Origin: an uncultured Gemmatimonadales bacterium
GTDB lineage: Bacteria > Gemmatimonadota > Gemmatimonadetes > Longimicrobiales > RSA9
Reading direction: 5' to 3'
DNA: 64,000 bases
Assembly: GCA_963783305.1 (NCBI GenBank)
Contig: CAWAMW010000015.1
Span: 96,001-160,000, forward strand
The notes under the pieces: generated by a model
Told to the model about the DNA's origin: nothing
What the model saw: the letters and a program-made list of their open reading frames with translations, nothing else
The model's database searches: none
Made by a program: the position numbers and the translations under genes
Shown here: positions 10,986 to 43,176 of the stretch, in pieces
Numbering within the stretch: the first letter of the stretch is position 1
Layout of the letters: each line of letters opens with the position of its first letter

Positions 10986-11062
10986 TCAGATCTTAGATCC
11001 TAGATCTTAGGTCTTAGCTCTCAGATCTCCGATCCCAGATCCCAGTTCTCGGATCCCAGCTC
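10986..11062. repeat. Degenerate 7-bp tandem repeat x11 (consensus YYAGATC) abutting the nrdJ stop codon
   Basis: tcagatc ttagatc ctagatc ttaggtc ttagctc tcagatc tccgatc ccagatc ccagttc tcggatc ccagctc. Confidence 0.9.
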
Positions 11063-39058: not shown

Positions 39059-41236
39059 ATGAGCATGGCGACGAAGGGATCCAGTAAGAAGAAAGCGAAG
39101 GGCGGCGCCCGCAAGGATTCTTCCAGATCCGGTAAGGTGCGAAAGAACGGCGGACCCGACAAGGCGACCCAGCTCGGCTTCTACCGCACCATGTTCTCGG
39201 CGCGGCGTACCGACGACAAGGAGATCGGGCTCAAGCGCCAGAACAAGATCTTCTTCCAGATCTCGGGCGCGGGCCACGAAGCGATCCAGGTGGCTGTGGC
39301 GCACCACCTCCGACCGGGGAAGGACTGGGCGTATCTCTACTACCGGGACCGCGCCCTCTCCCAGGGATTGGGGATGACGCCGTACGAGCACCTGCTCCAG
39401 GCGGTGGGTGCGGAATCGGATCCGGCGAGCGGCGGTCGCCAGATGCCGTCGCACTGGGGCCACCGCGACCTGCGCATCGTCTCCACCTCCTCCCCCACGG
39501 GCACCCAGTTCCTGCAGTCGGTGGGAACGGCAGAGGGCGCGTGGCGCGCCTCGCTGCTGGACGAGATGCGCGAGAAGATCGAAGACTTCGAGGACGACGA
39601 GGTCGTGCTATGCACCACCGGCGAAGGACAGACCTCGGAGGGGGAGTTCTGGGAGGCGTTGAACACCGCGTCCAACCTGAAGCTGCCGGTCATCTTCCTC
39701 ATAGAAGACAATGGCTATGCGATCTCCGTTCCCCGCGAAGTCGGCATCTCCGGCGGGAGCGTGAGCAAACTGGTCAGCGGGTTCCCCGACCTGCTGATCG
39801 AGGAGGTGGACGGGACGGACGTGCTGGCCAGCGTCGAGGCGGCGGAGAAGGTCGTCCGGTACGCCCGCGAGCGAAAGGGTCCGGCACTGCTGCACGCCCG
39901 GGTCATCCGCCCGTACTCGCACTCCATGTCCGATGACGAGCGGATGTACCGGACGGAGGAGGAGCGCGAGGCCGAGGCCACGAGGGACCCGCTTGTGACG
40001 TTCCGTCGCTACCTGGAGGAGGAGGGGGGGGTAACCGCGGAGGAGCTGGAGGCCCTCGAGAAGGAGGTGAACGACGAGATCAATGATGCCTCCGACCGGG
40101 CCCTCGAGCAGCCGCAGCCGGGGCCGGAAACGGCCATGAAATGGCTGTACTCCGAGGACGTGGACGCCACCTCTGACGATTTCGACACCGAGGACTCGCC
40201 CTCCTTCGAGGGTGACGAGACCACCATGGTGGATCTGCTCAACTCGTGCATGCGCAACGAGATGGAGCGGGACCCGCGGATCGTGGTGTTCGGCGAGGAT
40301 GTGGCGGATGTGAGTCGGGAGGATCTTCTCGACAAGGTGAAGGGCAAGGGCGGCGTCTTCAAGGTGACCGCCGGGCTCCAGCGGACCTTCGGCGGGACAC
40401 GGGTCTTCAACTCACCGTTGGCCGAGGCGAACATCGTGGGACGCGCCATCGGCATGGCCGTGCGGGGCCTCAGGCCCGTGGTCGAGATCCAGTTCTTCGA
40501 TTACATCTGGCCGGCGTTCATGCAGATCCGCAACGAGCTGGCCACCATGCGGTACCGGAGCGGTGGCGCCTGGGATGCGCCGGTCGTGATCCGGGTCACC
40601 TATGGGGGCTACCTCAAGGGCGGTTCCATCTATCACAGCCAGACCGGTGAAACGCTCTTCACGCACTCCCCGGGGCTGCGCGTGGTCATGCCATCCACCG
40701 CCCTCGATGCCGCGGGCCTGCTCCGTACGGCCATCCGCTCGGAAGACCCTGTCATCTTCCTCGAGCACAAGCACCTCTACCGCCAGGTCTACAACAAGAG
40801 CCCCTATCCCGGGCCCGAGTTCATGATCCCGTTCGGCAAGGCGAAGGTCGTGCGGGAGGGCACGGACCTGACCGTCGTGACCTGCGGGGCGGTGGTAAAG
40901 CGGTCGCTGGACGCCGCCAAGATCGCGGAGCAGGATGGCGTGAGCGTGGAGGTGATCGACCTGCGGTCCCTGAACCCGCTCGACATGGAGACCATCGCCG
41001 CGAGCGTCAAGAAGACCAACAAGGTGGTGGTGGCCTACGAGGACAGCCTGAGCTGGGGCATAGGGAGCGAGATCAGCGCCCGCATCGCCAGTGACCTGTT
41101 CGAGTGGCTCGATGGCCCCGTCAGGCGCGTGGCCAGCCTGGACACCTGGGTCGCGTACGCACCGCAGCTCGAGGCCGCGATCCTGCCGAACGCCGACGAC
41201 GTCCTGAAGGCCATCCGGGAGCTGGCGGACTACTAG
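39059..41236 (+). CDS. 2-oxoacid dehydrogenase E1, fused alpha/beta subunits (probably branched-chain type)
   Basis: GAGHEA, GRQMPSH, ThDP motif GEG...[31 protein letters not shown]. Confidence 0.93.
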
Positions 41237-41239
41237 GCT

Positions 41240-41410
41240 GGGCTCGCCTTCGGCTCGCGGGGGGCGGCCTAATCGGCCGCGGAGAGCGGCCTATCGGCCG
41301 CGGGGGGCTCGCCTTCGGCTCGCGGAGAGCGGCCTATCGGCCGCGGGGGGCTCGCCTTCGGCTCGCGGAGAGCGGCCTACGGCCGCGGGGGGCTCGCTAT
41401 CGCTCGCGGA
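41240..41410. repeat. Left array of about 8 palindromic 21-22 bp units (43-bp A+B period)
   Basis: A=GGGGCTCGCCTTCGGCTCGCGG, B=AGAGCGGCCTATCGGCCGCGG. Confidence 0.9.
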
Positions 41411-41792
41411 AGTAGATGGCGCGGCGGGTGAGGATTCGGGTGGCGCGGAGAAGGAGGGAGCGGAGGCGCTGCTCCGCTGAATCGGCGACCAGCCCCCTCC
41501 GGGCGAGGAAGCTGAGGATGGCGGCCGTCTCGGTGGCGGAGCGGCAGGCGTAGCGGTAAAAGCGCGCCTTGTCGCCACGACTGTATTCCCCGTGGGCTTC
41601 CGCGGTGTTCGTCAGCACCGACAGGCCCGCGCGGCCCAGTTGGGATGCACCCCACGGTCGCCCACGGCGGATGCGCAGCGCCACCTCATCCGCCATCTCC
41701 GCGATCTCCATAGCCAGCCCGAACACCTCCTCGTCCTCGAACCTGAAGTGCTCCGCCGCCCCCGCACGTTGTCCCGCCGCTCGATCACCCAT
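41397..41792 (-). CDS. Four-helix-bundle protein (23S rRNA-IVP / Avd-like family)
   Basis: FRFEDEEVF..A, SQLGRAGLSVLTNTAEAHGE...DKARFYRYACRSATE family pattern; 131 aa. Confidence 0.88.
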   Translation of the reverse strand: MGDRAAGQRAGAAEHFRFEDEEVFGLAMEIAEMADEVALRIRRGRPWGASQLGRAGLSVLTNTAEAHGEYSRGDKARFYRYACRSATETAAILSFLARRGLVADSAEQRLRSLLLRATRILTRRAIYFRER

Positions 41793-41842
41793 ACCCGAAG
41801 TTCATGCCGCTCCGTGGGCAAAGCCATGGTCCAATGAGCCCG

Positions 41843-42050
41843 GCGAGCGCAGCGAGCCCTCCGCGGCCGAAGGCGAACCCGCCGCGGCCGAAGGCCGCCC
41901 TCCGCGAGCCGAAGGCGAGCCCTCCGCGGCCGAAGGCCGCCCTCCGCGAGCCGAAGGCGAACCCTCCGCGGCCGAAGGCCGCCCTCCGCGAGCCGAAGGC
42001 GAGCCCTCCGCGGCCGAAGGCCGCCCCCCGCGGAGAGCGCCAGCGAGCCG
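41843..42050. repeat. Right array of about 10 palindromic 20-22 bp units (42-bp period), reverse complement of the left array
   Basis: GAGCCCTCCGCGGCCGAAGGCCGCCCTCCGCGAGCCGAAGGC repeated. Confidence 0.9.
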
Positions 42051-42069
42051 CCCCCCCTATCTTCCCGCC

Positions 42070-43176
42070 ATGACCGCCACGTTCCGCTTCCTCAGAGAGT
42101 TCCTGCGCCCGCGGCCGCACGCGGTGGTGCGAGAGGAGACGTCGTACGAACGGGATGGACGGCGGCTCCCGGCCACGCTCTACCGTCCAGCATCCGGGCG
42201 TCCCGACCGGCCGCTCCCGGGGTGGATCACGCTCCACGGTCTCACCCGCAGGGGCCGCGAGCATCCGTCCCTTGACCGATTAGCCAGGGCGGTAGCGGCA
42301 TCGGGGGCGGTGGTGCTGGTACCGGATCTGCCGGAGTGGCGCGAGCTGCACATCGCGCCGGAGACGACGGTCGCGACGATCAAGGCGGCGGTGCTGGAGC
42401 TCGACGGGAGGCCCCTGACGGAGGCCGGCCGGATCGGCGTGATCGGCTTCTCGTTCGGTGCGACGCAGGCGCTGGTGGCGGCCACGGACCCGGCACTGCG
42501 CAGCCACCTTGCGGGAGTGGTGGCGTGGGGCGGCTACGCGGACATTTTCCAGGCCACCCGGTTCGCGTTCCTGGGGAGACACGAGCTGGACGGGACGGAA
42601 TACCACCTCGACCCGGACCCCTATGGCCGCTGGATCCTGGCGGGTAACTACCTGACGCTTCTCCCGGAGCACGCGGACGACCACGCGCTGGCGGAGGCGC
42701 TCCTCGGTCTGGCGCAGGACGTGGGCCGGTTGGAGATCATGTCGTGGAGCCCGGAAACGGACCCCATGAAGGTGGCCGCGCGCTCCGGCCTGACCCGCGT
42801 CCAGCAAGAAGTCTTCGACCTGGTGGCGCCTCCGGCGGATTCGTCGTACGGAGCGGAGGAGCGGCGTCGAGTGGAGGAGCTGGTGCGGCGAATGACGGAG
42901 CGGGCGGTGGACCGGGAGCCGCTGCTGGAGGCGCGGCCCTACCTGAGCGGGGTGCCCGTCCCGGTCTGTCTCGCCCATGGGCGAGAGGATCGGCTCATGC
43001 CGTGGACGGAGATGATCCGGCTCAGGCGCCAGCTGCCGGAGGACCGGGTGCGCTACAGCGCTGTCACCAGCCTCTTCTCCCACTCCTTCGGAGAGCGCCG
43101 GTTTCCCTCCCCTGCCGTCCTTCTGGAGATGGTGCGCTTCGTTCGCCTGATCAGCCGGATGCTCCGTCTGATCTGA
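42070..43176 (+). CDS. Alpha/beta hydrolase fold protein
   Basis: LHG, GFSFG nucleophile elbow, HGREDRLMP; start at ATG 42070, after the repeat array. Confidence 0.8.
   Translation: MTATFRFLREFLRPRPHAVVREETSYERDGRRLPATLYRPASGRPDRPLPGWITLHGLTRRGREHPSLDRLARAVAASGAVVLVPDLPEWRELHIAPETTVATIKAAVLELDGRPLTEAGRIGVIGFSFGATQALVAATDPALRSHLAGVVAWGGYADIFQATRFAFLGRHELDGTEYHLDPDPYGRWILAGNYLTLLPEHADDHALAEALLGLAQDVGRLEIMSWSPETDPMKVAARSGLTRVQQEVFDLVAPPADSSYGAEERRRVEELVRRMTERAVDREPLLEARPYLSGVPVPVCLAHGREDRLMPWTEMIRLRRQLPEDRVRYSAVTSLFSHSFGERRFPSPAVLLEMVRFVRLISRMLRLI

Follow-up and report, generated by a model that had tools for sequence, protein, structure and literature searches.

A small four-helix-bundle (4HB) gene in the genome of an uncultured Gemmatimonadales bacterium lies between two mirrored arrays of short tandem repeats, and this mirrored architecture is real and beyond chance. 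On balance, and with modest confidence, we favour the reading that the gene and its arms are inherited as one unit, a repeat-armed cassette whose protein would likely bind the words of its own arms as DNA. The window, i.e., the whole stretch of 64,000 nucleotides that was analysed, corresponds to G000:C15:96001-160000, where G000 is the host genome (4.35 Mb, 69% G+C). Positions of the locus are given in the coordinates of the window.

Organisation of the cassette

The cassette occupies the junction between two host genes on the plus strand. The upstream gene (39059..41236, plus strand) encodes a fused alpha/beta E1 component of a 2-oxoacid dehydrogenase, recognised by the Pfam families E1_dh, Transket_pyr and Transketolase_C, and a gap of only 3 nt separates its stop codon from the left arm. 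In the left arm (41240..41410), B units (GGGCTCGCCTTCGGCTCGCGG) alternate with A units (GCGGCC-TATC-GGCCGC). The 4HB gene itself (41397..41792, minus strand) is intact, encodes 131 amino acids and was assigned to PF05635/TIGR02436 by profile matches, its fold being backed by an AlphaFold model. Its stop codon (41397-41399, TAG on the minus strand) falls within the innermost left unit (GGGCTCGCTATCGCTCGCGG, 41390..41409), which also contains the final three codons. A leader of 47 nt (41793..41839, minus strand) separates the start codon from the right side, where the innermost unit (41840..41859) reads GGGCTCGCTGCGCTCGCCGG as its reverse complement and the right arm (41852..42033) is the reverse complement of the left one, with TTCG in the loops of its A units. 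The downstream gene, an alpha/beta hydrolase recognised by a profile match (42070..43176, plus strand), most likely starts at 42070, and its frame stays open through the right array. The layout and coordinates reported in the first-pass annotation for a lone 131-aa gene antisense between two plus-strand genes therefore hold, and the divergent unit that it had described as innermost on each side, with the stop codon inside the left copy, could be placed exactly at the two positions given above.

A profile search detected no transposase or nuclease gene in the cassette, which bears out the earlier description of its gene content. A consensus scan of positions 41000-42300, confined to sigma-70 promoters and intrinsic terminators, returned none of either. 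In the Rfam search of positions 40500-42800 no family reached the threshold, and the permissive threshold gave one chance-level match (E 0.73).

Repeat units and predicted pairing of the arms

The left array was resolved by Tandem Repeats Finder into 3.9 copies with a period of 43, and the right array into 4.2 copies with a period of 42. Reverse complementarity between the arms covers 74 nt at 88%, with 42-nt segments at 93-95%, and a gapped alignment of the left arm with the reverse-complemented right arm gave 162/193 matches, confirming by alignment that the right array is the reverse complement of the left. Both units had been described as palindromic, and this stands for one of them: the A unit (GCGGCC-loop-GGCCGC) is a true hairpin (-12 to -13 kcal/mol as RNA), whereas the B unit, with a weak fold of -7.7 kcal/mol, is not palindromic but repeats GCTCGC directly (GCTCGC-n-GCTCGC). 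The innermost variant units fold at -4.5 and -8.1 kcal/mol. Minimum-energy folding predicted, on both strands, an arm-to-arm stem of about 165 bp whose loop contains the ORF (z-scores -14.7 and -13.0 as RNA and -15.8 as DNA), so that the stem of about 150 bp proposed earlier is recovered on either strand and with either nucleic acid.

The loops of the A units differ systematically between the arms, being of the TATC type on the left and TTCG on the right, from which it follows that each arm was homogenised or amplified separately, yet both reached about four copies. The difference also bears on the possibility that the mirrored arrays arose by chance or as an assembly artefact, namely a misassembled tandem repeat. 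Public short-read contigs (four DNA runs, low depth) do break at the arrays and none spans the cassette, and the contig of one relative ends within an arm. A misassembly does not account for loop letters that differ systematically between the arms, and the same layout recurs at 8 loci of G000 and, across other assemblies, at more than 80, which makes an artefact scarcely credible.

The four-helix-bundle protein

We know of no function assigned to PF05635 proteins, about thirty years after their discovery inside rRNA intervening sequences. The protein of the cassette matched PF05635 with 48 bits (cut-off 33.8) and TIGR02436 with 49.5 bits (cut-off 24), and its AlphaFold model (pLDDT 94.3) consists of four long helices. 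The top solved structure in the fold search was Xcc0516 (2gsc; TMq 0.80, TMt 0.89), followed by BT_0352 (2rld; TMq 0.71-0.76) and then by Avd (4dwl). The motif GxxRxxxSxxxNxxE (PMC3936711) is represented by R54, S58, N62 and E65, with Q51 instead of G at the first position. The solved homologue Xcc0516 is a homopentamer (PMC4990558). Searches with the 4HB protein gave no match by phmmer against PDB sequences and no family in PADLOC or PHROGs, so that nothing points to a known role in defence or in phages, and a relative's 4HB protein searched against plasmids by tblastn had no match at 1e-6.

Sister cassettes and gene-less arrays in the host genome

An arm score was defined as the best local alignment of the 450 nt to the left of a place with the reverse complement of the 450 nt to its right, and 1500 random places in the genome served as the null (mean 23.3, sd 4.2, 99th percentile 35, 99.9th percentile 40.5). 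The study locus scored 215. One random place reached 121 and proved to be itself a mirrored array without a gene. All six PF05635 genes of the genome have inverted arms (scores 35, 47, 50, 117, 122 and 215), as do both PF13366 (GxxExxY) genes (49 and 82). The repeat unit is specific to each locus, and includes heptamers (CACAGGG), hexamers (GGAGTA / CTCCTGC), 22-23-mers, 29-31-mers, a type of 50 nt and the A/B 21-mers of the study locus. A genome-wide scan for inverted matches less than 1.5 kb apart returned 11 loci, three of which are 4HB cassettes and one a GxxExxY gene with heptamer-type arms.

The hexamer GCTCGC reaches 17-48 per kb, always in the forward direction, in four cassettes, the proteins of which are joined in the tree at a node with weak support (80/86); it fills their arms. 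It is absent from the arms of the remaining two 4HB cassettes, and its background frequency is 0.96 per kb.

Each of the eight arm families is also present at 4-18 further loci without a gene. For the A/B family these are seven other loci, including mirrored pairs, so that the units are not confined to the gene, yet the tie to the gene family found in the co-occurrence search is strong. The conditions that the first-pass annotation had named as refuting, a spread of the repeats unrelated to the gene family and a lack of empty sites, are not borne out, empty sites being present in relatives as described below. Some gene-less mirrored pairs have only 40-100 nt between their arms; examples of such pairs are C7:631128-631396, C16:413195-413786, C11:40815-41376 and C2:13248-13704. 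Solo arrays begin directly after stop codons. These dispersed arrays are what would be expected if the repeats came first as host elements, i.e., REP-like terminators, message stabilisers or insulators, often laid down as palindromic pairs, with a gene inserted into or surviving at the apex. The restriction of the A/B unit to the genus (4 of its 6 other members carry the unit, as against 0 of 18 other genomes searched) is equally in line with such an origin. The fact that 8 of 8 cassette genes are armed, although arms are rare at random places, speaks against it, as do the empty junctions and the behaviour of the arm words described below, and we hold a host-repeat origin to be unlikely.

Armed cassettes in relatives and in other phyla

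PF05635 genes are present in 28 of 41 related genomes. From 113 matches 62 were examined, and 54 of these had full flanks. Arm scores of at least 35 were obtained at 43 of the 54 loci and of at least 41 at 36, against 3 and 0, respectively, of 187 control places offset within those loci. The arms of these relatives are not uniform in periodicity, with 13 of 36 reaching an autocorrelation of 0.7 at a period of 6, 7, 8 or 21. An excess of G over C in the 5' arm (27 versus 13 of 40, p 0.04, with non-independent relatives) is too weak to be relied on. Among armed cassettes lying between co-directional genes, 13 are sense and 13 antisense, a balance in keeping with a unit that flips between its arms and does not depend on host transcription.

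The survey was extended to public genome contigs with 79 relatives of one more typical 4HB protein from a related genome, 69 of which had full flanks; this sample represents a single protein clade, different from that of the study locus. Here 53 of 69 loci scored at least 41, compared with 1 of 234 controls. The hosts belong to about a dozen phyla, among them Gemmatimonadota, Acidobacteriota, Planctomycetota, Alphaproteobacteria, Armatimonadota, Chloroflexota, Bacteroidota, Spirochaetota and Actinomycetota. The heptamer words AGGGAAT, AGGGAAC, GGGACTA and GGGGATT are shared among their arms regardless of host phylum. Arms above the 99th-percentile score were lacking at 11 of 54 loci in the relatives and at 7 of 69 in the cross-phylum sample.

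The E1-hydrolase junction in related genomes

The history of the insertion site was followed in 20 relatives by reading the sequence that comes after the E1 orthologue. An empty site, which the first-pass annotation had proposed to look for, was found in five of them (G002, G001, G016, G015 and G024), where the hydrolase follows E1 after 40-115 nt and the arrays are absent together with the gene; G002 and G001 belong to the same genus as G000. Such empty junctions without arrays are not expected if the repeats were host elements already in place before the gene arrived. The empty sites of the relatives are too diverged to be aligned.

In three of the 20 relatives the slot holds a 4HB cassette, in either orientation and in one case with a truncated gene. 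In G006 the gene is intact, 56% identical and in reversed orientation, and its arms consist of hairpin-like units of their own, apart from an innermost unit that is nearly identical to the innermost unit of G000. G003 has arms of the G006 type, and only the final 45 residues of its gene are recognisable. G023, from another genus, has a 45%-identical gene with hexamer arms. In G004 the slot holds a hairpin array without a gene, and an intact copy (57% identical) with similar arms lies in another slot of the same genome. The contig of G005 terminates within B-type units, and in 10 of the 20 relatives E1 is followed by other neighbouring genes. The three slot-mates group as a clade in the tree built from 69 4HB proteins (support 95/84), and within this clade G000 and G006 are joined at 100/99.

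The cassette lineage is thus an old resident of this junction, where it has undergone flips, turnover and expansion of the arms, truncation, gutting and clean loss. Since the lineage is old in the slot, gain and loss at this place can be explained by vertical descent with deletions. The second copy in G004 and the arm words that recur across slots point to movement of the whole unit, so the earlier suggestion of a mobile element has to be qualified: it draws on these two observations and not on the slot itself, in which the slot-mates form a clade. The arms in the slot have been replaced almost completely (A/B 21-mers in G000, hairpin units in G006 and G003, hexamers in G023) while the proteins have kept 45-56% identity, and for this reason strict specificity between protein and word is not obvious for the slot lineage.

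Arm words follow the protein lineage

The arm words were compared among the 36 armed loci of the relatives, after the 54 loci had been sorted into 34 slot groups by flank similarity. With slots told apart solely by tblastx of 1.5-kb flanks, the 6-mer cosine between arms averaged 0.174 for pairs from different slots with at least 50% protein identity (n=32), compared with about 0.02 for different-slot pairs below 40% identity. None of 2000 label shuffles reached the observed association between arms and proteins, a figure which overstates the support because the related genomes are non-independent. Pairs of cassettes in the same genome had an arm similarity of just 0.018. Across slots and phyla, it is the protein lineage and not the host genome that the arm words track. 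This counts against repeats of host origin, as does the lack of shared words among cassettes of one genome. The view that repeats and gene form one unit, already put forward in the first-pass annotation, gains from three sides, namely the arming of every 4HB gene of G000, the lack of arrays at the empty sites of relatives, and the tracking of protein lineage by the arm words.

RNA processing and the lack of detectable RNase III

An RNA-processed element, after the model of the 23S rRNA intervening sequences (IVS), had also been suggested. In such a case the arms would pair in the transcript, a double-strand RNase would cut out the cassette, the ORF-bearing loop RNA would be released and the flanking messages would be separated. 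The RNA stem predicted on either strand and the location of cassettes at gene junctions would suit this mechanism. So would the UUCG loops in the 5' arm of either transcript, UUCG being a stable RNA tetraloop. The gene family and the stem-plus-ORF design are also the same as in the IVS of Coxiella and Leptospira (PMC4990558), and the ORF-bearing 23S rRNA IVS are excised by RNase III (PMC4990558).

Four models (PF14622, PF00636, TIGR02191 and dsrm), however, detected no RNase III in G000, and when three RNase III proteins from this phylum were searched against the genome by tblastn, the best E was 1.7. With TIGR02191 the count was 0 of 41 among the relatives and 0 of 66 among genomes of the host's class, whereas 14 of 15 genomes from other classes of the phylum had a match, and the control genomes matched as expected. 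Because RNase III was not found in the genome or in the searched members of its class, excision of the rRNA type is unlikely here, the RNA-processed reading is weakened and a role at the DNA level is favoured. Two further points count against RNA processing: the 4HB gene is antisense to both neighbours at the study locus, with the even split of orientations overall, and within a protein clade the same arm words persist from phylum to phylum, a constancy that a purely structural stem would not need. Taken together, we judge an RNA-level intervening element to be quite improbable.

Comparison with known systems

The ORF-bearing 23S rRNA IVS (helix 45 of Coxiella burnetii with S23p, and Leptospira), as described in PMC4990558, have PF05635 in common with the cassette, and likewise an ORF in the loop of a stem of terminal inverted repeats, which is predicted here, and a sporadic distribution among relatives. 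A selfish or mobile nature has long been suspected for such IVS (PMC4990558). The cassette differs from them in its position between the protein genes for E1 and hydrolase, outside helix 25/45 of 23S rRNA, and in its arms, which are about 170-180 nt of tandem units, compared with a 28-bp stem in Coxiella (PMC4990558). It also differs in a host class without detectable RNase III and in the gene-less arrays of cassette words dispersed in the genome.

RAYT/REPIN systems (Bertels and Rainey 2011, PMC3116915) resemble the cassettes in having one gene per repeat family with inverted flanking repeats, and dispersed, extragenic, gene-less inverted doublets capable of forming hairpins. Unlike RAYT, which is a Y1 transposase, the cassette gene encodes a small 4HB protein without a known catalytic site, and the arms are tandem arrays, not single REP doublets. 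A RAYT for the A/B units was sought and rejected: two weak Y1_Tnp matches (30 and 27 bits) lie elsewhere in the genome and are not flanked by A/B units.

Heptamer repeats have been reported as GGGAATC in Xanthomonas, with 70-75 convergent pairs per genome, and as GGGGA(C/T)T in Nostoc (PMC4692102). They are intergenic, paired, convergent arrays, treated in that source as G-quadruplex-forming, and the terms 'S23', 'intervening' and 'helix bundle' are absent from its main text. The published words of Xanthomonas and Nostoc (AGGGAAT, GGGGATT and GGGACTA; PMC4692102) also make up the inverted arms of a single 4HB clade that spans many phyla, whereas the units of the study locus are 21-mers. Small 23S_rRNA_IVP genes have likewise been noted in cas operons, lodged among the operon's own genes, as in the case of cmr3 and cmr2; they were read as CRISPR-associated functions, and the passage on them makes no mention of flanking repeats (PMC3936711).

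Avd, the accessory protein of diversity-generating retroelements (DGR; PDB 4dwl and 8ub7), has the same fold (TMq 0.71, TMt 0.85) at 13% sequence identity and acts within a complex of nucleic acid and protein. An identity of the cassette gene as a DGR Avd was rejected, since G000 gave no RVT_1 match and a pair of template and variable repeats was not found. In design, the cassette is also like the foldback (FB) transposons of Drosophila, which have long terminal inverted repeats built from short tandem repeats. FB transposons are eukaryotic, and some copies carry genes of the transposase type; the likeness is one of design and implies no homology. A search of the openly accessible literature found no published account of 4HB or GxxExxY genes between inverted repeat arrays.

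Proposed mechanism and significance

For the favoured reading of a repeat-armed cassette acting at the DNA level, the following mechanism can be envisaged. The 4HB protein, whose homologue is a homopentamer, would read the iterated words of the arms, and the arms would pair in a cruciform or in a foldback of single-stranded DNA. The unit might then be copied, flipped, expanded or deleted by the replication and recombination of the host, so that a dedicated transposase would not be needed. The gene-less arrays may be relics, or satellites acted upon in trans, comparable to the dependence of REPINs on RAYT. The unit would probably be selfish or close to neutral, and not a device for regulating its E1 and hydrolase neighbours.

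A wider reading, which we offer tentatively and regard as possible rather than probable, is that of a DNA-level counterpart of RAYT/REPIN that lacks a transposase and has the 4HB 'IVS proteins' as its master genes. Each protein lineage would read its own short word, sit between inverted arrays and seed gene-less arrays, which would give a common origin to the heptamer and hairpin repeats in many phyla and to the ORF-bearing rRNA IVS. Action at the DNA level is suggested for such a system by its success in a class of bacteria in which RNase III was not found.

To this picture the study locus contributes arms made of 21-base hairpin-type units, not heptamers, and a full series of states at a single junction (empty, full, flipped, truncated and gene-less). 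There are also practical consequences, as the cassettes break assemblies and extend open frames; the hydrolase frame that is open through the right array is an example of how they may mislead gene calling. The host class, in which RNase III is not detectable, separates a DNA-level reading from one by RNA excision, which other hosts cannot do. One genome here amounts to a natural experiment, with eight small genes, eight repeat families and gene-less satellites of each, and these eight genes and families make the hypothesis that the protein reads its own repeat directly testable. To our knowledge, the excess of short tandem repeats such as heptamers and REP-like hairpins in bacterial genomes is unexplained. 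If the 4HB protein reads its own repeats, this would explain the origin of many short bacterial repeats.

RNase III and the arms of the four-helix-bundle cassettes

RNase III, the enzyme that excises rRNA intervening sequences, was not found in the host genome (G000), in any of 41 relatives, or in any of 66 genomes belonging to the host's class, and it was present in 14 of 15 genomes from other classes of the same phylum. As judged from these genome sequences, the absence looks like a loss across the whole class. In the available text of a review, Deinococcus radiodurans is the only bacterium named as being without RNase III (PMC8708148).

An arm score, the best alignment of the left flank with the reverse complement of the right, was at least 80 at 12 of the 54 loci with full flanks from the RNase III-less relatives versus 3 of 69 cross-phylum loci, a comparison that is confounded because the two samples represent different protein clades. 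The heptamer arm words AGGGAAT and GGGGATT were common to one clade of four-helix-bundle genes in about 12 phyla (public contigs, loci L085-L163), and these are words of published 'G-quadruplex' repeats of Xanthomonas and Nostoc, according to the available part of that report (PMC4692102).

Other repeats in the window and the host genome

In the window, a solitary intergenic array of about 10 heptamer units (TCAGATC / TTAGATC) was located at 10986-11059, with no internal gene and no mirrored partner seen. Words of this kind make up the cassette arms in two relatives (loci L030 and L033).

Beyond the window, contig C12 of the host genome carries two GxxExxY (PF13366) genes (145156-145682, 135 bits; 141373-141870, 130 bits), both enclosed by inverted arms with related, heptamer-type words (GTGACACGAAGGGCTCGAA...), and sequence resembling these arms occurred at 6-9 further loci. 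On contig C16 (128999-129522), inverted arms of 45 nt surround 435 nt without a recognisable gene, in which a motif of about 90 nt is present three times (GGTCCCCAATGAA...CCGGA) together with a (TCCGAGTCC)n run. On contig C17 (470570-473905), inverted repeats of about 950 nt (738 bits) form a pair with 1.4 kb between them and probably represent either an insertion sequence or a gene duplicated in inverted orientation. The two Y1_Tnp-like genes at C2:249181-250191 and C6:65577-66638, each about 340 aa long, have a conserved upstream stretch in common, GGAATATGGAA.C..GGTCCGGTA, and none of the tandem arrays flanks either gene.

Start of the downstream hydrolase gene

The reading frame of the hydrolase gene downstream of the studied cassette, including its open upstream extension, covers 41569-43176 and runs across the entire right array, since the 42-nt period of this array is read as a stop-free 14-residue repeat. 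Comparison with relatives supports a start at 42070, and a gene caller could set the hydrolase start about 500 nt too early.
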